A stretch of DNA of 64,000 bases from Candidatus Nomurabacteria bacterium (lineage in GTDB: Bacteria; Patescibacteriota; Minisyncoccia; Phycocordibacterales; UBA9973): the NCBI GenBank assembly GCA_963832025.1, contig CAWHSF010000003.1, forward strand, positions 79,665 through 143,664, given 5' to 3'. Below are positions 4,909-36,677 of the stretch, piece after piece. Both the position numbers and the translations under genes were made by a program. The first letter of the stretch is position 1, and each line of letters begins with the position of its first letter. The notes under the pieces are model-generated. The model worked only from the letters and a program-made list of their open reading frames with translations, made no database searches and had not been told where the DNA came from.

Positions 4909-5934
4909 TTATTGTTTTACTTTATGAACACAATTTTCTTGAAATCCAGATCCTTGTCCACCATCTTGAATATAAATTCTTCCTCCATTTGGCAATGCAT
5001 CCCATTTCTCATACGGAGGCTTAAGAGAATCTCCTTTACCTTGCGGCGTCTCCCAAGCACTAGTATCTTTCAATAATTTTTCTTTCATTACCTTTTCTAC
5101 CACCTTACGTATCAATGCTGGATCCTGAATAAGTTGTTCTGAAAAAGCTCTTGCTATTGATTCTGGCAACACTATTTCAACACTTAAGCATTGTCCTTGT
5201 CTGCCCGTATAATCTCTCCATTCAGTTTGAGGAATTTGATAAGTAATTCTTACTGCTGGTTCATTTTTTCCAGCGCTAACAATCTCACTATGAAGTACTG
5301 GTTGATATTTCCCTGTAGCTTTTCTTTCGATGCGATCTGGAGTACTTCCCACACCAAACACTCCCTTTCTGCCTTTTATGGTTGATTCCTCATAAACCTC
5401 TTTCATTTCGGGACGAATATCAATAATTTCTCTAATACCATGTTCTTCAACTAATACATTTTTTAAAGTTTTCCCCTGGTTAACATCATTTCTTGAGAGA
5501 AAAACGTGTTCCATCGTTTTCAATGCAGAAGAAGGCATATGCCCATCTTGAATGCGTGTTGAAAGATCTCCAAATCCAGCATATCCTGTTGAGGATAAAT
5601 TTTGTGGAACCGATGTGAATATTCTTATACCACCATCTTGAAGCACCGTATTTATTGTTTTCTCGCGAGATTTTTGTTGCTCAGTCTGACTTTCAACACC
5701 CAGTTTTTTATGCAGAGCTTCCATCTCGGCTTCTTTCTTTTTTCTATTATGCTCTTCTGATTTACGCCAAAGTTCATCCAACTTTCTCCGACTTTCTTCT
5801 AACTCTTGTTCGCTCATTGCATTGCTGGGTGGTTTCTTCTCTGGTGTTTTTTTATATTCCATAGCCCTTGAAAAATCCAGTGTTCCATCTGGTTTTCTTT
5901 CAACACCTACAAAAAGTTTTTTCTCTAGACTCAT
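4909..5934 (-). CDS. hypothetical protein (341 aa), Lys/Glu-rich N-terminal region, no recognisable domain
   Basis: Long uninterrupted ORF bounded on both sides by REP hairpins. Confidence 0.55.
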   Translation of the reverse strand: MSLEKKLFVGVERKPDGTLDFSRAMEYKKTPEKKPPSNAMSEQELEESRRKLDELWRKSEEHNRKKKEAEMEALHKKLGVESQTEQQKSREKTINTVLQDGGIRIFTSVPQNLSSTGYAGFGDLSTRIQDGHMPSSALKTMEHVFLSRNDVNQGKTLKNVLVEEHGIREIIDIRPEMKEVYEESTIKGRKGVFGVGSTPDRIERKATGKYQPVLHSEIVSAGKNEPAVRITYQIPQTEWRDYTGRQGQCLSVEIVLPESIARAFSEQLIQDPALIRKVVEKVMKEKLLKDTSAWETPQGKGDSLKPPYEKWDALPNGGRIYIQDGGQGSGFQENCVHKVKQ

Positions 5935-5950
5935 AATAAAATTAATGTCT

Positions 5951-6016
5951 TGCGTTAGGTCTTGCCTAACGCAGTTTCTAGACCTTTTTTAAGGCTTGTG
6001 TGGATAACCCCCACAC
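5951..6016. repeat. REP hairpin (5951-5973), second copy of the 38-nt unit (5971-6008), then CCCCCACAC-family arm
   Basis: Exact repeat of 4135-4172. gtgtggataacccccacac is itself a hairpin. ccccacacttattgcaaag (6008-6030) pairs with ctttgcgataagtgtggggg (6057-6079). Confidence 0.9.
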
Positions 6017-6048
6017 TTATTGCAAAGATGCTCAAAAGAGCTTTATTT

Positions 6049-6633
6049 TTATAACTTCTTTGCGATAAGTGTGGGGGATAACTCTTTTGCCTGCAAAAGC
6101 ACTTCATGCGGGTAATCTAAAATATCCCGAACTAGCTTGTCGTACATATTTAGCCTATAAAGAAACTCTTTGGTTTCAAAAATTGCATAGACAAGTTCGG
6201 CTCCAATTTCCGCTTCAAGTTTGCGCATACCTTCTTCTATTTTTCCACGTTTCATTTTGTCTCCGACAATCAACAAATCCACTCGACTATCGTCGTTTTT
6301 AATAAAAACACCAGAAACTATGACCAGTTTTACTCGTCCAGCTTTTTTAAAAGTATCCAAGATAGTTTCTCTGTTTAAACTGTCTGAACGAACCAATAAA
6401 TCCTCAAATTCTTCACCATATTTGAAAGAAAAATTGAAAGACCAGCTTACGTCACGCTTTTTTATAAAACCAACAGAAGAAAGCAGTTTGAGTTCACGAC
6501 GAACGATACCGGGGTTTACTCTACTTCTTTTGACAATCTCTTTACTGGAAAAACCTTTATGTTTATTGAGTAGAAAGAGTCGCATGATCTTCACCCGGGC
6601 CGCATTACCCAATATTTTTTCTAGAATTTCCAT
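6049..6633 (-). CDS. winged-helix (ArsR-like) DNA-binding protein with a C-terminal nucleotidyltransferase-like domain
   Basis: N-terminal ARVKIMRLFLLN...SSKEIVKRSRVNPGIVRRELKLLSSVGFIKKR pattern. C-terminal half is a mixed alpha/beta region (VDLLIVGD). Confidence 0.5.
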   Translation of the reverse strand: MEILEKILGNAARVKIMRLFLLNKHKGFSSKEIVKRSRVNPGIVRRELKLLSSVGFIKKRDVSWSFNFSFKYGEEFEDLLVRSDSLNRETILDTFKKAGRVKLVIVSGVFIKNDDSRVDLLIVGDKMKRGKIEEGMRKLEAEIGAELVYAIFETKEFLYRLNMYDKLVRDILDYPHEVLLQAKELSPTLIAKKL

Positions 6634-12810: not shown

Positions 12811-12846
12811 CCTGTGGAAAAACCTCCAGACGTTGGACGTCTGGAG
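12811..12846. repeat. GTGGAAAAACC flank plus 23-nt palindrome ctccagacgttggacgtctggag (12824-12846)
   Basis: Core family member, also seen at 17177, 20219, 21729, 22213, 32351 and 35289. Confidence 0.9.
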
Positions 12847-12847
12847 T

Positions 12848-15800
12848 CTAACTCGGAATACTCACATTGATTACGTAAGGAGAAAGGTAATCATCGTATT
12901 CATTGCCTAGAGTATCTTGGATATGAACTTTCAAACGAAACGTTCCGTTTTGTAACAGTCCCCCTTTTGACAAAATACCGTCCCAAGTCTTGGTGCAAGT
13001 ATTAGTGCCATCAACACAACCGGCTCCGGATTGAAATAATTTATAAATACTTGCATCGTCTACGTTTTCAATTTTAACAGACATCCAATTTACATTTTCA
13101 TTCGCGGACAAAAAAAGTGTTAGGTTGTTTGTTAAGGGATTAGTTGTTATATCTCCTGCGATATTGTTGAATGTATAGCTGGTGATTAAAGGTGAGGAAA
13201 CTTGAGCAGGTGGAGACGGAGGATTAGGATTTGGGGCGACTGTTACTGTTACAATATAATTTTGTGTAGAATTATCTTCCGCGGTTACTGTATAAGTGAC
13301 CGGGCTGGTAAAATTCTGAGCTGTTATATTACTCGGACTGATTGAAGCCTTATCGGAAATTGTAATCGTGGGTACCAAAGACGTCACGTCAGTTCCATAC
13401 GGAACGGTCAAAGAAATAGTGTGATTACTTTCATCGACAACACCGACAATACTTGGATTTGAGCCCAAAAAATTAAAAGAGGAAATTATTTTAGCAGAAC
13501 TAAATTGCGGAACTGATTCATTTACAATATAAACAGTTCCGTCGCCACTTTTTATGCCATTTCCGTTAGTACCACTTGCCACAGTTGTGCCTGTAAATGA
13601 TGATGTTTGATAATAAATAGCGATTCTTCCTCCGCCACCTGGACCATAACATATATACGGACAAAATAGCCCTCCACCATTCGCTTGAAAACTTCCTGCA
13701 CCACTCAAGGTATTTGTCGTTATATAAATACTTCCACCACTTGAGGTATTGGCTCCATTGGCTGAGATTGTGCCATTGTTTATAATTGAATTAGCAATAA
13801 ATCGTATGGCGCCTCCTCCTGCGGCATGAGATCCATTACCTCCGCTACCTAAATCTGTCGGCATAGTAGAAGAACCGTATGTCGATGTCGAAGTGTTTAA
13901 ATATCCTACTCCACCATAACTCGCCCCGGCATAATATGGATTAGGATTATTTGGGTCGTAAACAGCCGTAGGAGCTCCGGGTCCAGCAGCTACTCCATAA
14001 CCTTTTGCATCAGCAGAAATGAATGAACCAGAATCAACATTAATATTCTGGATTGCTAAAGAAATCGTTTGCCCCGGAATAATAGAAAGAGAAGAATTTC
14101 CAACCACACTTAAATAACTAGATGTAATTTGTTCGGTACCTGAGAGAGTTAAAGTAGAATTTCTGTTCACCATCAACGTCGGAGCATTTAGTATCTCGCC
14201 TTTTGCTAAAGTAAAAGATGAATTTTGATCAACAATAAAATTATTTTTAGCTGTGATGGTCACCCCATCTTCCGATGTAACTACGGCACCATTTGAAATA
14301 TAAATATCATTGAATAAGAATGGTGCATCTGCTTGAAGAAATTTCCACGATGAACCAGTCAAGAAAAGGTCATCTGTTGATTCATTAAAAAGACCGACGG
14401 TGCCACTTTGCCCGCAAGATTCCGTGTAGCTATCATAACTCCCACATCCTCCTTTCGCATCTATCGTTCCACTGAAATTTGAATTTTGATAATGAACAGC
14501 TATTCGTCCTCCGCCTCCGGGACTTTTGAAATAACCCGATGCCAGAAGATTGCCACCATTCGCATGCACAACACCATTTCCTGTTATGTCATCTGCATTT
14601 ATATAGATACTGCCACCACTACTTGAAGTATTTCCATCGGCAGAAATAATTCCATTGTCAGTAAGAGCACCAGAGACTGCAAGATAGATAGCTCCCCCGC
14701 CACTCGATGCGCCTCCACTTCCTAAATCCATCGGCTTGGTGGCTGAGCCATATGTCGTAGAATAAGAAACACCGCTAAAACTAAATCCACCGTAACTCGC
14801 CCCGACAGAATATTCGGAAGAGATTCCGGGTCCGCTATTTTGACCATATCCTTGTCCATTGGCAGAAATAGAAGAACCAGGATCAATAGTAATATTCTGT
14901 GCATTGATTTTTACTCCCTTGAAAGAATTTGAGGAATTTGGATCACCCTGTAATGTTAAAGTTGCATTATTGGTGATTACCAAGTCTTCATAAGTATATT
15001 CTCCTGAAACCAAAGTAGTATTTTGATCTATTGTTGTAATATCGTGTGAAGGCTGTGGATTTGTTGGTGGAGTATTAGTATCGGAACCTGAGTCCGATGG
15101 TGGATTGGTCGTCGATCCATTTTGATCTGCTGGGTTCTGGTCTGTGCCGGAAGAAGTATTTGACGAGGAATTGTCAGGAGAAGAGTCTGTGGAATTTGAA
15201 GAACTATCATCTGTCGATGATGTATTTTGTGCTGATTGGGGATTTCCTGTTGTTGTTCCAGTAATTGTTCCAGGATTATCTTCCGGAATAGACGTCGTAA
15301 TTTCTCCTCCACCTCCTTTGCCGATAAATGAAGGAAAAGAAGAAACAGGCGGAGCTAATGAGATAATATTTCCGGTGGAAGTATCCTGAAGTGCGGGAGG
15401 TTGTTCGGCTGATGGAGAATTTACTGTTGTATCATTTGTAGTAGGGCTACTCGGCGGCGTCATTTGATTAAGCGCATTTATCGCGTCCCCACTATCATTA
15501 ACCGCTAAATTATTTATATCGTTTGCAGCCGGAGCAAAAAAAGAAGAAACGGAAGAAATTGCCGAACCGGTAATATTTGCAGTTGTATTGCCTACAGCAA
15601 CAGCAACACTACTCACACCATTGGCTACATAAACGAGAGCATCTTGTGCTGTAATTGTCACAGGGTCGAGAATAGACAAAACAGTACCTTGAATTTTCTG
15701 CGCTAGGGTTAATTTCGGGGGGTTGATACAAAGAGAATTTTCATCTTGAATATTATTATTTTTTAATTTATTTAAAGAAGTTTTTATATCAGACACAATT

Positions 15801-17164: not shown

Positions 17165-17279
17165 AAGTGGAAAAACCTCCAGACGTTGGACGTCTGTAAG
17201 GATACAGACGTCCAACGTCTGGAGGCTGATGTTGGACATCTGCTAAAGCAGGTGTACAACATCATTCAACGTCTGGAGG
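17165..17279. repeat. composite repeat: GTGGAAAAACC, 49-nt double palindrome (17177-17225), gatgttggacatctgctaaagcaggtgtacaacatc (17228-17263), aacgtctggagg
   Basis: Members of two families fused. Lies ~33 nt upstream of the 17132 ATG. Confidence 0.9.
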
Positions 17280-17288
17280 TGCTAAAAC

Positions 17289-17316
17289 AAAAAACCACCC
17301 TCTGGGTGGTTTTTTG
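17289..17316. terminator. bidirectional terminator aaaaaaccaccc-tct-gggtggtttttt
   Basis: Downstream of the minus-strand gene ending at 17335. The same hairpin type recurs at 21806-21835 and 22296-22325. Confidence 0.6.
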
Positions 17317-17334
17317 TTTTGTTTTTAATAATAA

Positions 17335-19241
17335 CTACTGACCCATTCCATTCATCAATGCTTTGGTCTTTGGACCAACCAAACCATCAGCTGTGAGTCC
17401 ATGAGCTTTCTGCCATTGCTTGATGATAGCAATCGTTTTCGAACCGAGCCATCCATCGACAGCCAAATTAAGATTCAAATTTTTATTCAAGAACATTTGA
17501 AGTTGTTTGACTGCATCACCCTTGCTACCGTTTTTCAAAACTGTTGTTCCGAAATTGTAGGTTGTGGTGGTAGTTGTAGTCGTGCCATTGTTGTTCATTG
17601 TCGTTGTGGTCACAGAAACACCACCAGCACATGATTGACCTGTAGTAGGACTAAACCAGTATTTGAGGAACAACCTGGAACCGACCCAGATGGAGTAACT
17701 GTAATGACTGGAGTAGAGTTGGGGTTGTGGTAACTGGAGTCGTGGTTGGGGTGGTTGTGGTCGTAGTAGTCGTGGTTGTTGTGGTAGAAGAACCTGAACC
17801 GCCACCCATATTTAGTTGTCCTCCACCGCCGCCAGTAACATAACAAGTCTGTGTCGTATCTGGAGTAATAGTAAATGTTGAACCTGTACCAGTGATTGTC
17901 ACTATAGTTATTAAACATGGAAGCAGTACAAGTCTGAGGAGCAACGACTGCACCACCGTCAACATTGTTTAATGGATATCCATTAGGCGATGTAAGTGTG
18001 AAGGTGCCACTTGCAGATATTTCAGCAATAGTACTACCACCAATGTTTATAGAAGTAACTGTTGAACCGCTCGAAACTGTGTAGTTGTGACCACCCATGA
18101 CTACTGTGAAGACACCGGTAAAGGTAGGAGTAGCTACAGTTTTTAGTCCACTACCACTCAAAGTAAGATTGAAGTAAGGTACAGCTAGAACTGTTTGAGA
18201 ACCAGCTGCGTTGTAATTTACAGTGTTTCCAGTTGCAGTTGCAGTAAATGTTCCCATCGCCGAAGTTCCACCAATGTTCAAAGTCGCGCCTGCGCCGTTG
18301 GTAAGAGCTCCTGAGCCAGAGAGGGCTGTCGTTACCGTCAAGGTTCCATTGTTCGTATACGTTCCAGTAACCGCCAAAGAAGGAATGGAAACCGTTCCTG
18401 TAATAGTTTTAGTTGTTCCGCTCAGAGTATATACGCCTGTGCCGGCAGTTAAAGTACCGCTGTCGGCAAGATTTCCGCCGATACCCACCGTATAGGTGGA
18501 GTTGGCCACAGTGGCCCCGCTATCTATTGTGAGATTGCCAGCAAGAGATGTGCTTGCGCCCAAGGTGAGAGTGCCGGAAGTTGGTTCCATGTTGCCAAAC
18601 GTGTACGCACCGTTTACAGCGCTAGTGCCTGTAGTAAAAAATCCGGAAGTAGCACTCATGCTCACAGTTCCACCCGCAGAAAGAGTACCGCCATTCATAG
18701 TAATATACCCGTTGCTGGTAGTGGTGAGCTGAGCTTTAGCCAATGTACCAGTAAAAGTAATATTTCCATTAACTGTCAAAATTGAGTTTGATGTCAATAC
18801 TGAATTTCCACCAGAACCTCCGTTCATCGCTAGGCTTCCAGTATTTATGGAAGCGAGAGTATCGGTTATGGTAGAGTTACCGGTGCCCGAAGAACCAGCA
18901 AAGGTCAGAGCTCCTGTGATTACGAGATAAGAACCAGAGTTGAGCGTAATCGCATTTGAAGCGTTTACAGGATCTTGCAAGGTTACCGATGCCGCCACGG
19001 CAGGGGTACTCAAATCATTGGCACTCGTTATCGTCACAGTGACGCCAGCTGGGATAATAACACTATCAGCAGACGTAGGGACTACTCCCCCGCAGCCACT
19101 CCAAGTGCCCGTATCGCTCCAGTTTCCTGTAGCTGCGGTACATGTATTTGCTGCATGCACATTACTTACGCCAACAAAACTAAAAAAAGCGAAAACAAAA
19201 ACAAAAATTCCCACACTTAACAATAATTTATTTTTTAACAT
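17335..19241 (-). pseudogene. secreted beta-helix surface protein with C-terminal PG-binding domain, at least 3 frameshifts near 17650-17930
   Basis: Signal peptide MLKNKLLLSVGIFVFVFAFFSFVGVSNVHA. C-terminal GSKGDAVKQLQMFLN...HGLTADGLVGPKT. Coding sense jumps between the three listed ORFs (17610-19241, 17651-17965, 17335-17805). Confidence 0.6.
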
Positions 19242-19363: not shown

Positions 19364-19410
19364 TGTGGATAACCCCCACACCTTTTGTTTTAAACGAAAG
19401 GTATGGGTTA
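19364..19410. repeat. ctgtggataac plus CCCCCACAC-family hairpin (cccacaccttt / aaaggtatggg)
   Basis: Immediately 3' of the second RAYT gene's stop codon. Confidence 0.8.
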
Positions 19411-19413
19411 ATT

Positions 19414-20097
19414 TTATACTTCCTGTGACAGCTCTTCTTCCAGCCCCAGAAAAGAAGAAACTTCTTTTCTTTGTTCCCTAATTACAGAGGACACCTTTAG
19501 GCACTCATTCTTGAAGTTATTGTTGGTACCAAAAAAACTGAGCAGGTTCTTCGCTTCTTTTTTGGACACAACATTAAAATCCATGTTTTCGTATTCAGCA
19601 TCACTGGACAAAATCAACTCCCGCTTTTCTTCGGGAATATTGTGAATCATGTGATTGATATTCACATATGGAAAAATTTTCAAAAAATATTTATTGTTTT
19701 TAATTAAGCTTGATTTAAACCTGCCTTGAAACAAAGCGCCATTCCTTTTATGCACCAAATTGAAATATTTCGTATAGCCACCGAGTAATCTTTTTAAAAA
19801 TTCGGAGATGCCTCCATCTACTTCTTGTTTTAAAATAAAATGAAAGTGATTCGGATTGAGACAATAACAAACAACAGCAACTAAGTTCCCTTCCTTGCTT
19901 TTTCTTTTCAAGCGTCGAGAAAATAACTTGTCTCGTGAATTGTCCCTGATACTACCAACCGGATAAATTTTATTGAATTGTTTTATGCTCAAAACAAAAC
20001 GATTGAGGTCCTTCTTATTCATAAAGATATCCCTCTTATCGACTCCTCTGTTGTAAATGTGATAATACTCGTTAGTTACAAGCGGATGTTTTCTCAT
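19414..20097 (-). CDS. rayT: REP-associated tyrosine transposase (RAYT-like, HUH Y1 family), second copy
   Basis: YYHIYNRGV, HUH motif NPNHFHFIL, GALFQGRFKS. Tyr block is degenerate (PYVNINHMIH). Start taken at the internal Met. Confidence 0.7.
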   Translation of the reverse strand: MRKHPLVTNEYYHIYNRGVDKRDIFMNKKDLNRFVLSIKQFNKIYPVGSIRDNSRDKLFSRRLKRKSKEGNLVAVVCYCLNPNHFHFILKQEVDGGISEFLKRLLGGYTKYFNLVHKRNGALFQGRFKSSLIKNNKYFLKIFPYVNINHMIHNIPEEKRELILSSDAEYENMDFNVVSKKEAKNLLSFFGTNNNFKNECLKVSSVIREQRKEVSSFLGLEEELSQEV

Positions 20098-20206
20098 AAA
20101 ATAATAAAAAATTTCTAGAGGAACGCGACCAGAAATTAAAAACAATTTATAAAAACTAAGCTTAATTAAGCTATTTAGTAATCATAGCGAAAAACTTCAT
20201 GAAGTC

Positions 20207-20266
20207 ATGTGGATAACCCTCCAGACGTTGGACGTCTGTAAGCTTACAGACGTCCAACGTCTGGAG
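20207..20266. repeat. catgtggataacc flank plus perfect 48-nt palindrome (20219-20266)
   Basis: ctccagacgttggacgtctgtaag|cttacagacgtccaacgtctggag. An identical copy sits at 35289-35336. Confidence 0.95.
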
Positions 20267-20276
20267 CTAGAACTAG

Positions 20277-20474
20277 TTACCAGGGGTAGCCGAAGAGAAG
20301 CAAGAGAACGAGGATGACGATAAAAAGGATGAGTAGGACATACACAAGATGCATCCAATCCGTGGGACGATTGTGTTTGGTCATGTAATTTTTATATATA
20401 TCAAGGCCTTTGTGGAAAATAAGAATCGGCAGGATGGCTATCAAAAACCAGGCTTTAAATAATATTTCAAACAT
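20277..20474 (-). CDS. small two-TM membrane protein (65 aa)
   Basis: Two hydrophobic helices; bounded by palindromic elements on both sides. Confidence 0.45.
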   Translation of the reverse strand: MFEILFKAWFLIAILPILIFHKGLDIYKNYMTKHNRPTDWMHLVYVLLILFIVILVLLLLFGYPW

Positions 20475-20502
20475 GGATTAATGATAGCAAAATTGGGAAA
20501 AA

Positions 20503-20610
20503 AACAAAACAGACGTTGGACGTCTGTTTTGTTTAGAACGCAGGCGTTGGACGCTTATAAGATGTTGGACAACTGCTAAAGCAGGTATACAACATCACGT
20601 ACAACGTCTC
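20503..20610. repeat. composite repeat: long hairpin aaacaaaacagacgt-tgg-acgtctgttttgttt, gcgttggacgc, gatgttggacaactgctaaagcaggtatacaacatc (20561-20596)
   Basis: Same families as at 17165-17279. Confidence 0.85.
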
Positions 20611-20613
20611 CTA

Positions 20614-21111
20614 TTATTTTTCCAAGGTAATCGTGGCGACGTTTTGGGAAGTTCCACAGTCTACCATGAACGTTGCGGGCAACTTTGCGCTGGAAAGTTG
20701 AATGATTTTAAAGCCATAAGCTTTAATGCTGAATACTGAACCGATGTGCACGGTACGTGCAACCGGAGCGCGGTTATCAACCATTAAATATGCATTGTTT
20801 TTGAAAATTAAGTTTGAAGGGCTGGCTAGAGCCTGACAATTGGTATCGAGCTGGAGACGAGCATCGGCATATTTTACTAATGCATCTGTATAACTGATAG
20901 AGACAGCTTTACCGGCGTTTATATCACCAGTGGTGGTGTCTTCAGTAGAGGTCGGCGTAAGCGCAGTTTGGTCTGTCGGATTCACTCCGGTGTTATTGGT
21001 CATAACCGAAGAATCTGATATATGTCTAACCCATATAATTAAAGCAATAACGACCACTACTACGACGACTGTCCAAATCCACATATTCTTTTTTTTGTTT
21101 TCTGTTTCCAT
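20614..21111 (-). CDS. membrane-anchored hypothetical protein (165 aa)
   Basis: N-terminal TM helix WIWTVVVVVVVIALIIWV followed by a Thr-rich linker and a beta-rich domain. Confidence 0.55.
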   Translation of the reverse strand: METENKKKNMWIWTVVVVVVVIALIIWVRHISDSSVMTNNTGVNPTDQTALTPTSTEDTTTGDINAGKAVSISYTDALVKYADARLQLDTNCQALASPSNLIFKNNAYLMVDNRAPVARTVHIGSVFSIKAYGFKIIQLSSAKLPATFMVDCGTSQNVATITLEK

Positions 21112-21310
21112 TCACATTTGAAGTAAAAGAGTATTTTTTGCTTTTACTTTATTTAAATAATAATCAAAAACGTTTTTCCCCGTAAGAACCTTGTTATATA
21201 AACTTCTAACGGGATTCATAAAAACTGACCAAACTTAATGATAAACAGTATAAGTATACCATTATTATACATGACGTAGTAGCTTCATGAATATTACACG
21301 AACCGCACCT

Positions 21311-21393
21311 GGGGATAACCTTGAAGACGTTGTACACCTGCTTTAACAGTTGTCCAACGTCTGAAAACAAAAAAGCCCCTTAGGGGGCTTTTT
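21311..21393. repeat. ggggataacc flank, agacgttgtacacctgctttaacagttgtccaacgtct (21325-21362), terminator aaaaaagcccc-tta-ggggcttttt
   Basis: Inverted-orientation member of the GTTGGACA...TGTACAAC family. Confidence 0.85.
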
Positions 21394-21402
21394 ATTTAAA
21401 TT

Positions 21403-21696
21403 TTATTTTCTTTTTTTCTCAAGGTTATAGACCCTACTGGAAAGTTCATCAAGAGCAAACCTGGATGGAAAACGGTCTGCTAAACTAATGATATCGTGAC
21501 GAATGTTTTTATAATTTTGCTGAACTTCAATAAAGTTATTTTCTAGTACATCTAATCGATTTTCCACACTATTAAATCCCTTGGCAACAGAAATGGCTAA
21601 GGAGTCCACTGTTTTGATAAGGGTGTTAACTTTTGAATTTAGATTGTTTTCTTTTGCGACAACCTTTCTCATGTTTTCCATTATACCAATCTTCAT
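21403..21696 (-). CDS. small coiled-coil protein (97 aa)
   Basis: Heptad-like sequence with no TM helix; bounded by repeats. Confidence 0.5.
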   Translation of the reverse strand: MKIGIMENMRKVVAKENNLNSKVNTLIKTVDSLAISVAKGFNSVENRLDVLENNFIEVQQNYKNIRHDIISLADRFPSRFALDELSSRVYNLEKKRK

Positions 21697-21717
21697 TTGG
21701 GGTGCAATTGATAAAAA

Positions 21718-21835
21718 AGTGGATAACCCTCCAGACGTTGGACGTCTGTAAGGTTACAGACGTCCACGTCTGGAGACTCCCCTTTTGGGGTGCTCCTAAG
21801 ACGCAAAAAACCACCCCCGAAGGATTGGTTTTTTG
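21718..21835. repeat. ~118-nt composite: agtggataacc, 47-nt double palindrome (21729-21775, 1-nt deletion), ccccttttgggg...aagacgcaaaaaacc-hairpin-ttttttg
   Basis: Same layout as 22203-22325. Confidence 0.9.
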
Positions 21836-21907
21836 AACTTAGTATATAATGCATCCGCAATTTTATCGTACTTTGTACTGATAAATAATAAGCTGTGATT
21901 GTTTTTA

Positions 21908-22198
21908 TTATGTAACTAACTTAATTCCGACTTTTTCTGCGATTGGTTTTATCCATTCTTCATGTCTATTTATCTGATTTTTTATAGCAGCATATTCTAA
22001 TGTTAAGTCACCTATTGATTTTGCAACAGAATCACTGGAAATAATGACGCCCTGAACGAGCTCTTTTAAATCTCCCAAGTCGCTTTTAACCTCTTCAACA
22101 TCTTTCTTTGAAGCAAGGACGGAAGTGAGTCTATCTATATCTTTATCATCTAACATTTCCCCATTATAGCAACTAAAATGGTTTGCGCAAATTAACAA
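21908..22198 (-). CDS. small coiled-coil protein (start possibly at the internal Met at 22156)
   Basis: MLDDKDIDRLTSVLASKKDVEEVKSDLGDLKELVQG...; bounded by repeats. Confidence 0.5.
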   Translation of the reverse strand: MLICANHFSCYNGEMLDDKDIDRLTSVLASKKDVEEVKSDLGDLKELVQGVIISSDSVAKSIGDLTLEYAAIKNQINRHEEWIKPIAEKVGIKLVT

Positions 22199-22202
22199 AT
22201 AA

Positions 22203-22325
22203 GTGCATAAACCTCCAGACGTTGGACGTCTGTAAGAGTCCGGACGTCCAACGTCTGGAGGGCCCCGTTTGGGGTGGCTCCTCCAAGACGCAAAAAACCA
22301 CCCCGGTAAGGGGTGGTTTTTTGTT
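22203..22325. repeat. ~120-nt composite: gtgcataaacc, 48-nt double palindrome (22213-22260), ccccgtttgggg...aagacgcaaaaaaccacccc-ggtaa-ggggtggttttttg
   Basis: Second copy of the 21718-21835 layout. The terminator hairpin is perfect here. Confidence 0.9.
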
Positions 22326-22369: not shown

Positions 22370-25300
22370 TTAGTTATGAATACTAACTGATCCACTTGGG
22401 TAAGCGTATAGTGCAGAACCAGTAGACCTGATGTAGGAGTACCACCAGTTGTAGCAACACTGACTGACGTTACGCCACCGTTGATATCATCCCATACGAA
22501 GTAGCTGAAGTACCAAGACTTACAGAAGCAGTTGCACTTGTACCAAAGGTAGAACCAGTGAAGTTCGCATGAATTTCAAAGGTCTTTGAAGTTACCTGCT
22601 GAGATTCTGTAGTGGTTAGCAGTTGTCAGAACCGAAGACCTTCGGAAGCAGTAGCACTGGTAGTACCAGAAGTGTTTGTAGCAGTGAAAGTTTGCAAGAG
22701 TAACACCGTTAGTATCAGTAAGTGTTACGATCCAGGTGCAGCGATAACTGGAGTTCCACTAGTACCAGCGTTAAGTGAAACACTTAATGGGATTTCACTA
22801 AGAGCGATATCACCACCATTGTCTGCTGTAACAGTTACTGTTCCAAGAAGAACACTGTTTCCGTTGGTAAGAGCTTGAGTTGAAGCATTCAAAGTAATTG
22901 TTGGCTTTGAACCGACAAGAGTAAGATCAGTACCAGGCACTGAAGGAGCTAAGTAAGAAGTAGTACTTCCTGTCTGGTATTGAACATATTCAAGAAGAAT
23001 TTGTCCTGTTGATCCAGAAGCAACACCACCGTTTGTATTGACAGGTCCAAAGGACATGAACACAGGAACAGTGACACCGGAAGGATTGTTAGGAACAAGA
23101 ATGCTTGAACCTGTTGCACCAGTAATAGATGAAACGTATGCAATACCATTGTTAAAGATGCAGAACCTGTAGCAACACCTGGACTATTTAGAGCAACACC
23201 AGTGACACCACTAGTTGCAAGCTTGTAAATAGTTGAAGGAACACCAGCAGCAATAGACAGTTGCACTTGTAGATCCAAGAACCAACGGAGTGGTAAGGTT
23301 TACTGTCAAAGTTGACAGAACCGTGTGCAGTAACTGTACCAACAGCATTAGTACCACCATAGATACCAGTTGTAGTGATAGATTATATTATCACCAGTTG
23401 TAATACAAGTCTACCAGAAGTAGTTGCAATTACAGTTGAACCAGTTGAAGTAAGTCCAGCACCTGAAGTAGTAGCATGCAGTACGTCTCACTTACTCACA
23501 GTCAATAGCAGCAAATTTAAGACCTAGAATAGTTGCTGTACCTGTTGAAGCAACAAAGTTATATGTCTCTTGAGCTGCATTTGTAGCACCAGTACCAGCA
23601 GTTGAAATGTATTGAGCATTAGTTGATGCACTTCCAACAATGTAGGGTAACCTAACGTACCTACGCCGAGTGCATTGTTTGACCGCAACAGTATGTAGGA
23701 GTTAATGGAACTCGTGAGATTGCACCGACAGCTGTACAAGTCCAAGATCTGTAACAAGGTTACCCGTGTTAGTTGAACCTAAGTTAGCCAATGACATTAA
23801 CAGTCTGTGAGCCACCTGCAGGAATAACAAAGTTCGTTGAGAACGTGTTCAGATGCAGTAGGTTGACCGATTGGTGTAATAGTTCCTGGAACACCAGAAA
23901 TGACTCAAAGTTGAGAAGTTAGTAATCGGAGTAAATATGCAACAGTAACTAGCTGTTAGTACCAGTAGTTGAACAGAGGCCAATAATCAAACTGTTAACT
24001 TGAACTGCCTTCAGAAGTACTGTTGTTCTGAAGTGTGAATGAACCAATCTCTGCACCAGAAGTATTTGGACTGATTGTTTGACCCAAGTAACCGGTATTT
24101 GTACCGAGAGTCAAGGAACCAGTCGCAATAGTCATTGCGTTAGATGCTGGGAATGATAATCAGAAGTATTTGTCTGACCAGACGTCATACCTTGATAATC
24201 ACCGACTGGAATGTAAATTCCAGTAGTGGTTGTTCCAACTGGAATCGAGTACCAGAAGTGTATTTAATCCACCGCTATTTACTAGGTCAGCATGAATCTG
24301 GAATGTTCAGTCGTCCCTCCAGCAATAGTAAGGTTTGAACCTGGATTGAATATCAATGGAGTAATCGCACAAGAACCAGCAGTGGTAGAATACTGCATTT
24401 TGGCTTGAGCCAACTGGGGCACCATTGTAGTAAAGAGTAACATTACTCAATGCTGCAATCCAGGGTCATAGTTGTGGTAATACTACAGCATGCTATGCAT
24501 TTGACCAGGAAGTAACTTGTGGAGTAACATAAATCGTATTGACTTTTACATTTTCTCCGTATGAAGCAAAATGAATCCACCAATAGCAACATTGGTTGCA
24601 CCACCAGTAACGTTAGTATGTGAATTAAATGCAGGATCAGTTGAAGCACTAGTGAACCTGGTTGAATCTGGAACAGACCTGCCATTGTTTGAGAGAATAT
24701 TGCTTGGTTTGGACCCAACACTGAAACATTTACGCCAACTTGTGAGTCTGTAACCATAAGGTCAGATGCATTTTGGAGTGAAAGTTGAGCAGTACGAGCA
24801 GAACCATTTACAATATCACCGCGAACTTCAAGAGTTGTAGCACCAGTAATCATAGTATAAGGATTTGAAGTTAAATCAAATGCGATATAACCCATAGAAT
24901 TGATACCAGTTGAAGTTGCGATTTGAACGCCATTTGCGTAAAGTCCAAGATTTGCAAATGAATTTGCTGGAGCTGAACCGATGACATCAAAATTTGCACT
25001 CTTCAACAATACTGAGTGAAGGGAAACAGTTACAGGAGCTGACCAAAGAGATAACGCTGGTTGTTCCAGCTGATAGTTGACTTTTAAAGTGCATGCATCA
25101 CTGTATTTGCCACCAACACTTACTGTTGAAAGAATACCTAAACCACTGTTGATGTAGAAAGAATTACCAGCGACACTTACAGTGTTGGCTGAGCCACCAC
25201 TAACCGTGTAACTAGTAAGAACTACTTGAACTGTAGATTCAGTATTAGGTTGTTGAAGATACGATATCAGCGTGAACAGAAACATCAAGTGAACCATTTA

Positions 25301-26054
25301 CAGCGATGTTTAGACCGTTGAAAATGATTTGACCCAATGTGAATTGATAGAAGCTGCGTCTGTCAAACGAGTATTACCACTATATAGGTATACGTTTGGG
25401 AAGACTGGGTTATCTGAAATTCCTGTTCTCTGTAATGTAAGTTGTGTAAGTGTTCCTGTTCCAGTGAACATAAAGTGAGCCAAGTCAGCAGTAGCTTGAC
25501 CTTGGATAAGGTTGCCAGCTGCTGGATTGTCTGTAGCAAGAGAAACAGTTAGAGGACCAGTTGATGTAACCGGTACGCCACTTGAACATGGTTGACCAGT
25601 CAATGAACTATATCCTGTAGATGAGACACATCCTGCTGGAAGAGTCGTAGTGGTGGTCGTTGTGCCAGTTGAACAGGTTGCGCCAGTTGTAGGACTGAAT
25701 CCTGAAGTTGAAGTACAACCTGCTGGAAGGCTCATAGTCATACCGCCACCAAATGCAGCGAGAGACTTAGGACCGAATACTCCATCAGCTGTCAAACCTT
25801 CCTTTGTCTGCCAAGCTTCAACAGCGGCTTTGGTTTTTGGACCGAAGCTACCATCGGAAGTAATACCGAGAGCAGTCTGAAGGATCATAACTTCAGCATG
25901 ATATGTGGAACCAACTCTCAAGGTGTGTGTGATTGAAGTAACAGTTGCTGTTTGTGCAGCAGCTGTATTAACAGCGAGAACACCAGCAACCTACAAGCAA
26001 AACTGCAGCAATCATAACTCCAAGAAAGAATTTTGATTTTAATAAATTACTCAT
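22370..26054 (-). pseudogene. heavily decayed paralog of the 6743-9586 surface protein (signal peptide, PG-binding domain, Cys motifs, beta-sandwich repeats)
   Basis: Fragments in all three minus frames: N-terminus MSNLLKSKFFLGVMIAAVLL then a stop; ILQTALGITSDGSFGPKTKAAVEAWQ; LVGSKPTITLNAS...TVTVTADNGGDIALSEIPL (compare LVGSKPNITLASS...TLTVTADTSGDIALAKIPV); C-terminus LYAYPSGSVSIHN-stop at 22370. No ORF of 60 aa or more across most of 23280-24440. Confidence 0.75.
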
Positions 26055-26520
26055 AAAATTTTTCTAATTTATCCTTCGACAAAATTTGCTTCGCAAATAA
26101 TTTGTCTCAGGATGCTACGCCATTAATTAGTTTCGACAAAACTAAAAGCGTATTTTTTTCCTATCGTTAATCATCACCTACTAATAACTAATAATTTTTA
26201 ATAATGAAGCAGATGAATAAAAAACGAACAGAGATAAACAAACATTGAAAAACGAAACACAAAATTTTACAAAATAAAATGTGAGTTATTTCATAAAACT
26301 TTTATTCAGTTTTCAATGACCTTTCTTTTACCCTTTTAAATCTTCCAAGTGATTGAAAAATCTAATCAGGCTATCTATCCTCCTTTGAGATTTTTTCGAC
26401 GAAATCGCAAACGAAAATAAATATTTTCTACAAACAAATCTATGTGCACAGAAAACACAGCGTGTGCTTCTGTAAACATAAACACATTATAATATGTAGC
26501 TCTAAAATAGAGCAATATAT

Positions 26521-26700
26521 TATGTGGATAACTCGCCATGTAGGCGAGCCACTCCAGCTATATGTTCTCATACTTTTATACGGATTGCAAGGAGAAATGG
26601 GTGCTTTGAGATAAATAGGAGCGCCGAGACGTTGGACGTCAGCTGGAGATTCAAATTCATGACGTTGGACATCCGCCTCTGGCGGGTGTCCAACGTCTAG
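26521..26700. repeat. repeat cluster: atgtggataac plus tcgcc-atgta-ggcga hairpin, gagacgttggacgtc, 37-nt gacgttggacatccgcc-tct-ggcgggtgtccaacgtc (26661-26697)
   Basis: Three family members in 180 nt; the last is the partner of 6680-6716. Confidence 0.85.
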
Positions 26701-26711: not shown

Positions 26712-27578
26712 CTATTTCAAAAAATATCTACTCCAACGCTTCTCTCCGGTCTTATCAAGGACGTTGTCTTTTACCATAGAAACTAGCTCGCGCTGCAATG
26801 TCTTTTCACTGCAAACTATAAGGACATTAAATTTTTCAGTGTGTGCTTGGGCTTTGTCCTTTATGTCCTTTATGGTAGCTCCCCCTGTTATTGTTTTAAT
26901 TATAGCTATGATGCTTTCACGTCGCTGTCTTTTAAGAATATTAAACCCCGCATCAAATCCTTCACGGGCAGAGATATTTTTATCGGACACAGAAATATGT
27001 CTTAGGGCTTTCAATAAAGTGCTTCCCTTTTGAACGCCAAGATTGGTGGAATTGTGATGTCCGATAACCTGACGTCGGACATCTGCTAAAGCAGGTGTCC
27101 GACGTCTCTCCTCATCGAGAGTAGAATTTGCAAAAAATTCTGCTAAATTTATCTCCTTGTTTGATATATCAGCCTTGTTTGTGGAATCCAAAATAGATTG
27201 ATTCAATTCAGAAAATTCCTTCTTTAAGATATTGCAATTCATCTCGGAAATAATATTCACCGCGGAAGCAATCTCTAAAAAGGACATGATTTCGGCTATC
27301 TTGTTACTCATAAAAGACAATGTGTGCCCGGTATTATTTCGTTGTAATAAATGTATGTCCGTTATGATTTCAGCGCCCAATGTCCTTAATTTATTTCTTA
27401 GAGGTTCGTCTTTGTCTATGATGTCCGTAACCATGTAAAGAGCTGTAATTAGCTTATCTGTTTTAGTATAAGAACCCACCATAAAAATCGCTGTTTGGTA
27501 TGGAACAGGCACAGAGGAAGAAGTGTCTTTTACAGAGTTTTTATTAGAGTCCTTGAGATTTTTTTCATCTCTAAACAT
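26712..27578 (-). CDS. hypothetical protein (288 aa) with probable C-terminal winged-helix domain
   Basis: C-terminal ...SEKTLQRELVSMVKDNVLDKTGEKRWSRYFLK pattern. Contains an in-frame palindromic insert. Confidence 0.55.
   Translation of the reverse strand: MFRDEKNLKDSNKNSVKDTSSSVPVPYQTAIFMVGSYTKTDKLITALYMVTDIIDKDEPLRNKLRTLGAEIITDIHLLQRNNTGHTLSFMSNKIAEIMSFLEIASAVNIISEMNCNILKKEFSELNQSILDSTNKADISNKEINLAEFFANSTLDEERRRTPALADVRRQVIGHHNSTNLGVQKGSTLLKALRHISVSDKNISAREGFDAGFNILKRQRRESIIAIIKTITGGATIKDIKDKAQAHTEKFNVLIVCSEKTLQRELVSMVKDNVLDKTGEKRWSRYFLK
27071..27106. repeat. 36-nt palindrome gacgtcggacatctgctaaagcaggtgtccgacgtc inside the 288-aa ORF
   Basis: Same core (ctgctaaagcag) as the intergenic copies at 17228 and 20561. 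Preceded by cgataacc. 12 codons (RRTPALADVRRQ). Confidence 0.85.
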
Positions 27579-30660: not shown

Positions 30661-31709
30661 ATGCAAAAGAAAAAAGAAAAGAAGGCGGACAAGACAATGG
30701 GAGGTGAAGATGCGACAGTTTTAAATGACACCCTGAAAGCTATCCAGACAAAGTTTGGAGAAGGCGCAATCATGAAATTTGGTGATTCTCCAAAAGTGGA
30801 TATCAATGTCATCCCGACCGGTTCAATCGGACTGGACATGGCGCTCGGTATCGGTGGAATTCCTCGAGGGAGAATCATTGAAATATTTGGACCGGAATCT
30901 TCCGGAAGACTACCCTTTCACTGCACATCGTGGCCGAAGCGCAAAAAAAAGGTGGTGTCTGCGCATACATTGATGCTGAACACGCCATGGATCCGGACTA
31001 TACAAAAAAACTCGGCGTCAACATAAATGATTTACTTATTTCTCAACCGGACAACGGCGAACAAGCACTGGAAATAGTAGAGAGTCTCGTGCGAACAGGA
31101 AAAATTGATGTCATCGTGGTGGACTCGGTAGCTGCGCTCACCCCCAAAGATGAAATTGAAGGAGATATGGGAGCATACCATGTCGGCAAGCAAGCGCGCC
31201 TGATGTCGCAAGCGCTTCGCAAATTGACCGCCATCGTCGCCCGTTCGAAAACTGTCGTAATTTTCATCAACCAAATACGCATGCAAATCGGAGTGATGTT
31301 TGGCAATCCGGAAACGACTCCCGGAGGAAAGGCTTTAAAATTTTATACTTCGGTTCGACTCGACATTCGCAAAATTGCGCAGATTAAAAAAGGAGAAGAA
31401 GTCGTCGGCGGACGCACTCGGGTGAAAGTGGTGAAAAACAAAGTTGCCGCACCATTCAAACAAACGGAATTTGATATCATTTACAACGAAGGCATTTCCA
31501 AAGAAGGCGAATTGATGGCCTTGGGAGAAAAATATAAAATCATTGAGAAAAGTGGCAACTCATACTTTTATACACCCGCGGGTGAAGGAAAGGAAAAGAT
31601 AAAATTGGGTGTTGGTTACGATTCCACTCGAAAATTCTTGAAAGAAGAAAAAAAGATTTCCGAACAAATCTTAAAAGAAATTAAAAAGAAGTTTGCGGAA
31701 GAGGCATAA
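30661..31709 (+). CDS. recA: recombinase RecA (apparent -1 indel in the P-loop codons near 30904)
   Basis: GPESSG then a frame change, then [50 protein letters not shown]. Restoring one A in tccggaa(a)gact gives GPESSGKTT. Confidence 0.9.
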
Positions 31710-31768: not shown

Positions 31769-32350
31769 ATGTCACAATTACAATACAATGAAATTCGCGA
31801 GAAGAAAATCATTATTCATGACGATGAGCCGTGCGAGGTCGTGGAGTCCCATGTCGCCCGCACTCAGCAACGCAAACCGCAAAACCAGGTAAAACTAAGA
31901 AGCTTAATTTCCGGCAAGGTCTTCCCTGCCACTTTCCACGTTTCCGATTCAGCCGATGAAGCAGATATGGAGAAACGCGAAGTTACTTTCCTGTATCACA
32001 ATAAGGGTGAATATTGGTTTTGTGATCCCACAGACAAAAGTAAAAGATTTAAACTGGACGAAGCATTGCTCGGAGATACGGTAAAATTTTTAAAAGAAAA
32101 CAGCAATGTCACCGCTTTGGTTTGGACAAACGAAGACGAAGAAGAAAAAATCATCAAATTAAGCATGCCTATCAAAATGGAATTTAAGGTAAAAGAAGCT
32201 CCGCCGGCGGTGCGCGGAGACACTTCTAAGGGAGGGATCAAGGTTATCATTTTAGAAAATGGAGCCAAGCTCAATGCTCCGATGTTCGTAAACGAAGGAG
32301 ATATCATTCGGGTAAATACGGAAACCGGAGATTACGTGGAGCGAGTCTAG
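31769..32350 (+). CDS. efp: elongation factor P
   Basis: 193 aa with an EF-P three-domain pattern, ending GDIIRVNTETGDYVERV. TAGTAT lies 6 nt upstream of the ATG. Confidence 0.85.
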   Translation: MSQLQYNEIREKKIIIHDDEPCEVVESHVARTQQRKPQNQVKLRSLISGKVFPATFHVSDSADEADMEKREVTFLYHNKGEYWFCDPTDKSKRFKLDEALLGDTVKFLKENSNVTALVWTNEDEEEKIIKLSMPIKMEFKVKEAPPAVRGDTSKGGIKVIILENGAKLNAPMFVNEGDIIRVNTETGDYVERV

Positions 32351-32384
32351 CTCCAGACGTCCAACGTCTGGAGGTTTATCCACA
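32350..32384. repeat. 23-nt palindrome ctccagacgtccaacgtctggag plus gtttatccaca (perfect TTATCCACA), reverse orientation
   Basis: Mirror image of the 12811-12846 element. Confidence 0.9.
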
Positions 32385-35251: not shown

Positions 35252-35285
35252 ACTAGCAAAAAGCCCTGAAAAAGTAAAGTTTATT

Positions 35286-35346
35286 ACCCTCCAGACGTTG
35301 GACGTCTGTAAGCTTACAGACGTCCAACGTCTGGAGGTTTATCCCC
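35286..35346. repeat. perfect 48-nt palindrome (35289-35336) plus gtttatcccc flank
   Basis: Identical to 20219-20266. Lies ~35 nt upstream of the rpsF start. Confidence 0.95.
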
Positions 35347-35350: not shown

Positions 35351-36214
35351 TTAAATTTTGAATAGTCTTTTGGCGTTTGCGATAATAGCTCCTGCCACTT
35401 CCGCTTCGGAAAGGTTTTTAATTTCAGCGATTTTTTTCACAATTTCTTGCACATACACAGGTTCATTGCGTTTGCCACGATACGGCACCGGCGCCACATA
35501 AGGCGCATCGGTCTCGGACATAATCATATCAAGTGGAGTATTTTTTATAACTTCATCATAATCATGCGTAAAGGTTATAACCGGTAAAAGAAAGAGTGAA
35601 ACCAAAATCTAAAAATGCTTTCGCTGTATTCCAGTCACCCGCAAAAAAATGCACGTCGCCTTTTACTTTGGAATATTTTTTTAAAAGCTCCAATGCATCC
35701 ATGTAAGCATTTTGGGTTGCTTGTGGTGAGCCCGTCGAACCATTGCGAATGTGCAACATGAGTGGCTTGTTAAATTCGTTCGCAAGTTCTATTTGCGCGA
35801 TAAAAGCTTCCTTTTGTTTTGAGATTGATTCTTCTTCTAAGCGATAATAATCCAACCCACATTCACCTATCGCAACTATTTTCTTATTTGCTTTTTCATC
35901 TTTTAAAAGTTCCCGATAAATATTTTTATCAAAAATTTCTCCACGTGAAGTAAATTCACCACCTTCTTCTCCTAATTCTTGTTTATCATGAAAAGAAGCG
36001 CCGGTATGTATCGGATGTAAACCAACAATCGCATAAACTCCTTCTTCATATTTATGCGCCAACGTCTACGGCATTTTTGGAAGTATCCGCTTGCGTGCCG
36101 ACATTTATCACCCAAGTATCATTATCCAAGGCGCGTTTAATAACGACATCTCTGTCTTCATCAAATGCTTTGAAATTAACGTGTGCTGTGAATGTCTATG
36201 TATTTTGGGGTCAT
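35351..36214 (-). pseudogene. tatD: TatD-family metal-dependent hydrolase with at least 3 frame disruptions
   Basis: MTPKYIDIHS(H)VNF..., HKYEEGVYAIVGLHPIH, GECGLDYY, PLMLHIRN, DAPYVAPVPYRGKRNEP spread over three frames (breaks near 36190, 36065, 35590). Confidence 0.7.
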
Positions 36215-36226: not shown

Positions 36227-36277
36227 GACCCCCTCCTTTCTCCTCCCCCTTAGTAAGGGGGAGGCTGGGTGGGGGTC
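36227..36277. repeat. 51-nt GC-rich palindrome gaccccctcctttctcctccccc-ttagtaa-gggggaggctgggtgggggtc
   Basis: Family copies at 36638-36677 and 37232-37283. Confidence 0.9.
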
Positions 36278-36628: not shown

Positions 36629-36637
36629 TGGTATTTT

Positions 36638-36677
36638 AGCTCCTCCGCCTTAGTAAGGGGGAGGTTAGGAGGGGGTC
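36638..36677. repeat. second copy of the CCCCTTAGTAAGGGGG family (shorter left arm)
   Basis: agctcctccgcc-ttagtaa-gggggaggttaggagggggtc. Confidence 0.85.

Follow-up and report, generated by a model that had tools for sequence, protein, structure and literature searches.

A REP/REPIN-RAYT-type locus with palindromes at the boundaries of differing gene modules in a Nomurabacteria genome

Repetitive extragenic palindromes (REPs) and their doubled, hairpin-forming versions (REPINs) are best described from Pseudomonas and Enterobacteria, where they accompany a REP-associated tyrosine transposase (RAYT), i.e. a syntenic, vertically inherited HUH/Tyr transposase homologue flanked by its own palindromes (Nunvar 2010; PMC3116915; PMC5581495; 4er8, PMC3479197). 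In these systems the copies are dispersed and mostly extragenic, the hairpin co-varies with the RAYT lineage, and a short conserved motif lies beside it, with the GTAG next to the E. coli REP hairpin as a precedent (PMC3479197, PMC6006769). Here, we describe a locus that is alike in all of these respects, located in a 64-kb stretch of the genome of a tiny uncultured bacterium, Candidatus Nomurabacteria bacterium (assembly GCA_963832025.1, contig CAWHSF010000003.1, positions 79,665 to 143,664; hereafter the window). Five co-oriented small genes on its minus strand, the last of which encodes a RAYT homologue (RAYT2), have spacers that share one palindrome family (REP-A). By structural definition the locus is a REP/REPIN-RAYT system, and we consider it likely that it belongs to a type specific to the Paceibacterota (Patescibacteria, or candidate phyla radiation, CPR), with repeats that mark, and probably promote, the rearrangement of gene modules in a plastic locus.

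REP-A (core CAGACGTTGGACGTCTG) is present in all five array spacers as copies or variants, often in the form of a 48-nt REPIN followed by the motif GGTTATCCAC, which we call the head. The 48-nt palindrome upstream of RAYT2, already noticed in a first-pass annotation of this DNA, is perfect: its arms (20219-20242 and 20243-20266) are 100% complementary without gaps, and as single-stranded DNA (ssDNA) it folds at -28 kcal/mol (z = -11.8). Near-perfect doublets occur as well. Folding is also strong for REPIN-a (-24 kcal/mol, z = -7.8), REPIN-b (z = -8.7), the hairpin between p97 and p165 (z = -5.5) and the REP-A cluster at 20502-20611 (-15.3 kcal/mol, z = -7.4), and weak for the hairpin at 19365-19407 (z = -2.6). 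Rfam returned only sub-threshold chance matches to the palindromes. Across the window, the core CAGACGTTGGACGTC has 34 matches with three or fewer mismatches, compared with 0.68 expected, and REP-A cores occupy 11 of the 31 intergenic gaps of at least 40 nt, plus one coding sequence. They are locally enriched in the array (5/5 gaps vs 6/26 elsewhere; Fisher p = 0.003, or p = 0.014 against the other gaps within 1-37 kb only), and the tightly packed operons at 37-64 kb contain zero cores.

The array layout is real and not a product of chance. The gene order on the minus strand is p96, p97, p165, p65 and RAYT2, as previously annotated, and the last two spacer blocks are indeed paralogous, with 84% identity over 135 nt (21706-21835 vs 22190-22323). 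The spacers are mosaics built from a terminator, a small GC-rich hairpin, a REPIN, a head and a -10 box. Two regularities proposed earlier hold only in part. A motif was said to precede every gene: GTGGATAACC, which reads as GGTTATCCAC on the coding strand and lies immediately 3' of the palindrome, is perfect at three sites (19365, 20209 and 21719), but p65 has no copy upstream and the copies at 21311 and 22203 are degenerate. Likewise, a terminator was said to follow each gene. A scan calls a canonical hairpin with a T-run after the large upstream gene and after p97, p165 is followed by a REP hairpin with a T-run, and p96 by an imperfect hairpin with a T-run that was read by eye and not called by the scan, but none follows p65 or RAYT2. 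The terminator at 22290-22324 is orthologous to the one after the same gene in three relatives (L002, L087 and L089; the prefix L denotes comparison loci).

RAYT2 itself reaches 23.0 bits against Pfam Y1_Tnp, exactly the cut-off (23), and in an alignment of 49 homologues both the HUH motif (H84-F85-H86) and Tyr144 (in PYVNxN) are invariant. Its AlphaFold (AF2) model (pLDDT 79, pTM 0.78) has as its top Foldseek match in the PDB the E. coli RAYT bound to a REP hairpin (4er8_A; E = 2.9e-5, probability 1.0), with IS608 and ISDra2 TnpA as the next fold matches. Searches of the PDB by sequence, with the single protein or with a 13-sequence profile, gave nothing significant, i.e. only the fold search matched. 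RAYT2 has >3000 homologues, with Paceibacterota, Nomurabacteria and other Patescibacteria as the named sources, and some of them are annotated RayT. The window holds two divergent members of the family, RAYT1 and RAYT2, which share about 31-37% identity.

Comparisons were made with 80 genome loci carrying RAYT2 homologues, plus further contigs. RAYT2 occupies one syntenic slot in >20 Paceibacterota species (58-81% protein identity), and wherever the RAYT is at least about 58% identical the neighbourhood reads FtsK - p288 - large surface proteins - [small genes] - RAYT - p177 - p1213-like - L10 - L12 - (PurH) - p194 - MscS-like channel. As this neighbourhood is the same across species, RAYT2 behaves as a vertically inherited gene, which has been described for RAYTs (PMC5581495). 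Nearly every locus of the RAYT2 family has 3-nt-loop hairpins on one or both flanks of the RAYT, with the same REP on both flanks in relatives. In the window, a REPIN lies upstream of RAYT2 (20219-20266), and downstream there is a different hairpin with a head, the next REPIN being located past p543 (17177-17224). The downstream element (19365-19407) shares homology with L089 from its head onward; in L089 the head has a REPIN before it.

The hairpin stems vary by species (CAGACGT, CAGGTAT, CGGGTGT, TAGAGGT, AATCGGT and AGATAGGGGC). GTTGGAC forms the loop region in about 44% of the distinct hairpins listed (48 of 110), far more than any other type. When 49 distinct hairpins are compared, each of the 10 stem pairs has changes on both of its sides; these hairpins were picked for pairing, and it is the diversity of pair types that is informative, not the percentage paired. 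In about 20 of the 30 closest loci, hairpins that differ considerably in sequence are followed by the head, in the form [A/G]GTT[A/T]TCCAC. A variable stem combined with a conserved loop and a conserved adjacent motif is what would be expected of a REP recognised by a protein.

A further feature of the family is that many RAYT2 orthologues hold the REP hairpin of their own genome inside the RAYT coding sequence (Table 1), which the window RAYT2 does not. The intragenic hairpin falls in a variable, low-confidence loop at about aa 58-68 (...DVGRL/DVGRP...) and co-varies with the flanking REPs. It could reflect autoregulation or recurrent in-frame insertion.

The first-pass annotation had proposed looking for gain, loss or reordering of genes at the palindromes across relatives, and this comparison is positive in L087, L089 and L095 (Table 1). 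For example, L087 is without window segment 20208-17224, which holds RAYT2 and p543, and both flanking alignments overlap there on a single REPIN and head (L087 9002-9058, 57 nt). The counterparts of this unit in the window are the copies at 20266-20209 and 17224-17167, and the L087 unit is a hybrid REPIN and head. Since a RAYT is present in the same slot of more distant relatives, the most parsimonious account would be a deletion in L087 between two direct REPIN copies. In L089, p165, p65 and RAYT2 are missing, and the corresponding window segment (21310-19382) sits between two heads. Where the window has p96, L087 has a 137-aa gene and a beta-lactamase-fold gene, and this pair is flanked by a perfect 32-nt direct repeat of REP and head (CCAGACGTCCAACGTCTGGAGGGTTTTCCACA). 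In L095, the order of RAYT and p65 is swapped, such that p65 stands past the RAYT as a module that has a REP variant and promoter of its own, and a REPIN or REP variant stands at each junction. Homology between contexts stops within the head at 22209, and at 21719 and 20209 it runs to the 3' end of ...CCAC.

Traces of other changes are also visible in the array. L089 has an intact 73-aa DUF2283 gene whose start (981-1047) matches window 21898-21832 at 91% identity, which indicates that the p96-p97 spacer holds a gene remnant. Window 21511-20599 is 96-98% identical at the DNA level to L087 7840-8633, compared with about 75-82% for neighbouring core genes, and this suggests that the segment was recently exchanged between lineages. 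Specifically, p165 is 98% identical to its L087 copy, the elements of the p97-p165 spacer are identical, and p97 is 96% identical in its 3' half and diverged in its 5' half.

In the reading that we favour, RAYT2 is a vertically inherited, syntenic HUH/Tyr transposase homologue, and its cognate repeat is a short hairpin with a conserved GTTGGAC loop region, in most cases doubled to a 48-nt REPIN, with the head GGTT(A/T)TCCAC(A) usually after it. Stacked with terminators and promoters, REP elements fill the spacers between resident small genes that are independently transcribed, and the units of REPIN and head probably act as breakpoints; it is exactly there that modules have been lost, replaced, duplicated or permuted in related genomes. 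The simplest route would be recombination between repeat copies, by which direct copies would yield a deletion, or a circle that could re-enter at another copy. REPIN copies probably cause the rearrangements, through the RAYT, RecA-type recombination or slippage of replication at hairpins. The junctions that RAYT catalysis would produce are also expected from recombining repeats of 50-60 nt or from errors of replication at a hairpin.

Table 1. Coordinates of features in the 64-kb window and at comparison loci, and gene arrangements of the locus. In arrangement rows, a slash marks a REP/REPIN junction, usually with head, and big is the large upstream gene.
Feature	Position	Strand	Description
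p96	22156-21908	-	82 aa, predicted coiled-coil protein (ORF list and translation)
p97	21696/21672-21403	-	Predicted coiled-coil protein, 89-97 aa
p165	21111-20614	-	N-terminal membrane anchor
p65	20474-20277	-	Small protein, two hydrophobic stretches; conserved RAYT neighbour
RAYT2	20097-19414	-	227 aa, HUH/Tyr (Y1) transposase-like
Terminator hairpin after large upstream surface-protein gene	22290-22324	-	15-bp stem and T-run; first element of spacer block a
REPIN-a and head variant	22203-22262	-	19-bp arms 22212-22261; head variant GGTTTATGCAC 22213-22203
DUF2283 gene remnant	21832-21898	-	5' end of antitoxin-like gene, fused to terminator
Spacer block b	21719-21835	-	Terminator, small hairpin, REPIN-b 21729-21775, head GGTTATCCAC 21728-21719
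p97-p165 spacer	21311-21393	-	p97 terminator 21370-21393, REP-A variant hairpin 21326-21363, degenerate head GGTTATCCCC 21320-21311
REP-A variant cluster	20502-20611	-	Ends in terminator-like REP hairpin extended by A/T runs, 20502-20534
REPIN and head	20209-20266	-	REPIN 20219-20266, head GGTTATCCAC 20218-20209
Non-REP-A hairpin CCCATACCTTT...AAAGGTGTGGG and head GGTTATCCAC	19365-19407	-	Upstream of p543 promoter
Mosaic spacer upstream of p177	17167-17326	-	Terminator, REP-A variant, REPIN 17177-17224, head GTTTTTCCAC 17176-17167
RAYT1 unit	4135-6083	-	hpB - p341 - inverted hpB - RAYT1 - hpB; 1.8 kb
CCTCCCCCTTAGTAAGGGGGAGG family copies	36229-36277, 36629-36677, 37235-37283		
Hairpin-free AGTTATCCACA sites	26524-26533, 4164-4173, 6000-6009; L007 4058; L087 1465; L009 3458; L015 14016; L024 15261		
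Intragenic REP in RAYT	L016 10173-10207; L018 10178-10202; L003 10161; L014 and L021 10182; L022 9639; L030 10186; L032 317		
Frameshift-split genes	49728-51391, 53327-54531, 30661-31709, 35351-36062, 41580-42396, 22395-26600, 17335-19241		
Arrangement, window			big / p96-(DUF2283 remnant) / p97 / p165 / p65 / RAYT2 / p543 / p177
Arrangement, L087 and L088			big / 137aa-beta-lactamase2 / 55aa-p97 / p165 / p65 / p177
Arrangement, L089 and L090			big / p96-like-DUF2283 / p97 / p543-like
Arrangement, L002			big / DUF4258-DUF2283 / p165 / p65 / RAYT / p177
Arrangement, L005			big / p65 / RAYT / p177-like
Arrangement, L095			big / RAYT / p65 / p177
Arrangement, L009 and L020			big / p96-like-p65 / RAYT / p177; other REP sequences used
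Arrangement, L018 and L031			big / RAYT / p165 ... p65

Several observations weigh against reading the locus in this way. The NCBIfam model REP_Tyr_transpos gives RAYT2 28 bits, below the equivalog cut-off of 80. One breakpoint of the exchanged segment is in the middle of p97, away from any REP, and the perfect 44-nt direct repeat on either side of a toxin-antitoxin pair in L002 is a terminator and not a REP. Three contigs of one species (L097-L099, 98-100% identical) have one arrangement without variation. The relatives are separate species, with core-gene DNA about 75-82% identical, and the number and order of events are uncertain. Moreover, REPs occur in almost every spacer here, so gene insertions and deletions will meet a REP to some degree whatever their cause. 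Finally, with regard to a cassette-like process, p96, p97, p165, p65 and the DUF2283 pair recur at this single locus, mostly in constant relative order, and REP-A is not specific to accessory genes, as it also lies upstream of the L10/L12 operon (12813-12849), between TatD and S6 (35276-35344) and after EF-P (32346-32384).

Some of these points would be expected if the association were a passive coincidence, i.e. if REPs were selfish or regulatory intergenic elements (terminators, mRNA stabilisers), the array were just a series of short, separate genes with long spacers, and gene content differed by ordinary indels that have nothing to do with the repeats. The copies beside core genes and within coding sequences, the terminators inside REP-bearing spacers and the breakpoints off REPs (mid-p97; the L002 pair) all fit that account. 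Nevertheless, we find it highly improbable, because the RAYT2 and p543 difference leaves exactly one hybrid REPIN and head in L087, with alignments overlapping within 57 nt, because at least three more independent module differences are bounded by a REP or REPIN, mostly with head, and because REP-A is locally enriched in the array gaps. At the other extreme, the first-pass annotation had suggested RAYT-mediated capture or shuffling of single-gene cassettes. The part of this proposal that stands is that modules differ between relatives at the palindromes (L087, L089 and L095); catalysis by the RAYT is hypothetical, and the genes are long-term residents of one locus. In its explicit form, RAYT2 would cut ssDNA at hairpin and head, with a candidate cleavage site at or next to the junction of GGTTATCC and AC, and a segment bounded by two such sites would leave as a circle and re-insert beside another site, as an HUH-based equivalent of integron cassettes or of the 'peel and paste' of IS200/IS605. 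We regard this as unlikely, even though the modules are bounded on both sides by hairpin and head with homology ending at or within the head, and even though the perfect 32-nt repeat around the L087 gene pair and the RAYT/p65 swap in L095 are as it would predict. RAYT2 also has an IS608-like fold with its catalytic residues (HUH and Tyr) retained, and in the window a hairpin element is inserted exactly between a native GAGTTATCC and ACACA at the 3' end of p194, a site that is empty in L002 and L009. However, REP-A copies lack a target remnant on their 5' side, headless REPINs occur (L002 purH 17195-17243; also L010 and L012), and the small genes keep to their single locus across species, with none of the array genes found at unrelated loci among the relatives compared. 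To our knowledge, the RAYTs studied so far mobilise REPINs and not genes. The stronger proposition, that the units of REPIN and head are single-strand recombination sites at which the resident RAYT, a domesticated transposase, would excise and re-insert whole modules and so shuffle small surface and toxin-antitoxin genes, i.e. an HUH-endonuclease counterpart of the integron, appears decidedly unlikely.

An alternative of another kind is that the repeat unit is mainly regulatory, with GGTTATCCACA as a putative host protein-binding box or promoter-proximal element and the blocks of hairpin, box and promoter reused as 'mobile promoters' before unrelated genes. In its favour, AGTTATCCACA is conserved at sites that have no hairpin: in 6 genomes it precedes the large surface gene, and in the relatives examined it stands roughly 100 nt before the MscS-like gene, also where another gene lies between them. 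The conservation of this motif before channel and surface genes indicates that the head probably also serves as a promoter-proximal box of the host. In addition, a promoter-bearing block is duplicated before unrelated genes in both the window and L089, and the heads in the array all point with transcription. By contrast, the distance from head to -10 box varies from 0 to about 41 nt, and the plus-strand heads at 32376 and 35337 have no downstream gene. The regulatory reading is also compatible with the REP-RAYT explanation; we think it extremely improbable as the main account. The head GGTT(A/T)TCCAC(A) also fits the DnaA-box consensus, TT[A/T]TNCACA. We did not adopt TTATCCAC as an oriC/DnaA-box cluster, as the motif trails REP hairpins throughout the region and the cumulative GC skew has no turning point; no dnaA was seen among the window ORFs scanned.

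Homologues of p96 in L009 and L020 hold the same relative position (43% identity), a p96-like gene is also found in L089, and no family was matched in Pfam or NCBIfam. Only 4 homologues of p97 exist among 5.8 billion proteins. Homologues of p165 stand at the same locus in many relatives, either upstream or downstream of the RAYT, and a metagenome scan with p165 as query led to only 4 short loci. Exact-sequence look-ups of p165 and p97 gave no match, and gene callers probably used other start codons. Homologues of p65 adjoin the RAYT in L002, L003, L005, L009, L014, L020, L097 and others, and lie downstream of it in L095. PADLOC assigned none of the small proteins to a defence family. A tandem duplication as the sole origin of p96 and p97 was rejected, as the two proteins have no alignable sequence similarity, though their flanking blocks are 84% identical; in L089, the blocks that flank the corresponding genes look near-identical by eye.

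A TATAAT-like box lies 6-80 nt upstream of each small gene when read by eye, the promoter scan having called that of RAYT2 only. For p96, the ATG is 6 nt past the box (TATAAT, 22168-22163) and the mRNA is probably leaderless. The start of p97 is likely the ATG at 21672, with its -10 box at 21685-21680. More generally, the ATGs of p96 (22156), p97 (21672) and p65 (20474) are 6-7 nt past such a box, which suggests leaderless transcripts for all three genes.

The pattern of the array was also reported at 4.1-6.0 kb and 36.2-37.3 kb, but the palindrome families there differ from REP-A. The first region holds the RAYT1 unit, bounded by a perfect 38-nt direct repeat (4135-4172 = 5971-6008) that duplicates native sequence; its hairpin family, GCGTTAGG-N5-CCTAACGC, has three copies, all within the unit. 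In L002 and L009, p194 ends in ...GAGTTATCCACACA... with the channel-gene promoter directly after, whereas in the window a further long hairpin element interrupts the 3' end of p194 after GAGTTATCC and is followed by the RAYT1 unit. The unit is a true insertion beside a native head copy. The head as an obligatory target that leaves a copy 5' of each REPIN was considered; it fits the p194 site and fails for the REP-A copies. The p341 gene belongs to a rare family of 24 proteins, whose members elsewhere are not beside RAYT genes. As such, p341 looks like a passenger or neighbour rather than an insertion sequence (IS) gene, and we rejected it as a fixed partner of RAYT1 in a two-gene IS. In the second region, the palindromes are of the CCTCCCCCTTAGTAAGGGGGAGG family and flank a GNAT gene as well as a split ORF (36276-36628), the latter taken as DUF559-like without a family scan. 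In L089, palindromes related to CCTCCCCCTTAGTAAGGGGGAGG are stacked with others in duplicated spacers of roughly 330 nt (330-550 and 1265-1455).

REPINs also occur in frame within genes. One lies in the p288 coding sequence (27069-27121), and two are located in L002 purH, which encodes the core enzyme PurH (17195-17243 and 17993-18048). Such intragenic REPINs add peptides such as PDVGRLEASRRPTSG and recall the Rickettsia palindromic elements. Frameshifts break up several core genes of the window (ArgRS, SHMT, RecA, TatD and a class II tRNA synthetase) as well as the large surface genes. Because a 1-nt indel at 17906 within p543 separates the window from an independent contig, L001, the splits look like assembly indel errors and not pseudogenes.

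Few mobile repeats of bacteria persist for long and are passed on vertically. REP-RAYT systems belong to these few, and their role for the host is still under discussion. We found no report of a REP-RAYT system in CPR bacteria in the searchable literature. The present locus extends them to this group with about 80 orthologous loci, in which the stem changes while the loop stays, and among the closer relatives (RAYT about 58% identical or more) the adjacent 10-mer is conserved too, which makes it a candidate recognition code. It also adds sequence-level cases of whole genes lost, replaced or permuted exactly at REPINs, in genomes with very few other mobile elements. Involvement of the RAYT would make this a novel means of shuffling genes, built into minimal-genome CPR bacteria; otherwise, the locus is a clear case from nature of modular plasticity that repeats mediate in reduced genomes.

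Compared with other described systems, the layout formally resembles an integron array, as the first-pass annotation remarked: co-oriented small genes are separated by a hairpin repeat, lie next to an enzyme that acts on ssDNA, and vary in content by genome. However, the likeness does not extend further. No window ORF scanned matches an integrase family in Pfam, nothing resembling attC/attI architecture was seen, although no formal attC search was made, and the genes have their own promoters and terminators and reside in conserved order, unlike integron cassettes, which are mostly promoterless. REPINs are, moreover, also found at sites outside the array. With IS200/IS605 elements (IS608, ISDra2; 2a6m, 2vjv, 2xm3) the system shares the fold, a hairpin with a short adjacent motif, and one hairpin element inserted at a copy of that motif, but RAYT2 is fixed at one syntenic locus and is not a hopping, multi-copy IS. 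The RAYT1 unit comes closer to these elements, with matching terminal hairpins and an insertion relative to other genomes, but it differs in having an unrelated 341-aa gene and a 38-nt direct repeat; IS200/IS605 elements generate no such repeat.

Exchange of whole genes in one slot is also known from the minimal mobile elements of Neisseria, which use flanking-gene homology after transformation, and from the pdif modules of Acinetobacter, which use XerC/D sites; here, the module boundaries are REPIN and head. The bacterial interspersed mosaic elements (BIMEs) of E. coli and the Neisseria intergenic mosaic elements (NIMEs) with dRS3/RS arrays (PMC3184786, PMC3733652) are similar in their mosaic spacers of repeats and terminators and in their link to recombination and plasticity, but the mosaic described here is tied to an adjacent RAYT, includes promoters and separates single small genes. 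Lastly, in known REPs the foot of the hairpin carries a conserved tetranucleotide, GTAG or CGTC (PMC3733652, PMC6006769), whereas the REP-A hairpin foot has no GTAG and is accompanied instead by the longer 10-mer head GTGGA(A/T)AACC, which some copies lack. The locus further differs from the known REPIN-RAYT systems in its CPR host, in a protein that scores below the NCBIfam RAYT cut-off, in a GTTGGAC loop region conserved across species, in the REP inside the RAYT coding sequence of many orthologues, and in REPINs that stand at the boundaries of differing gene modules.

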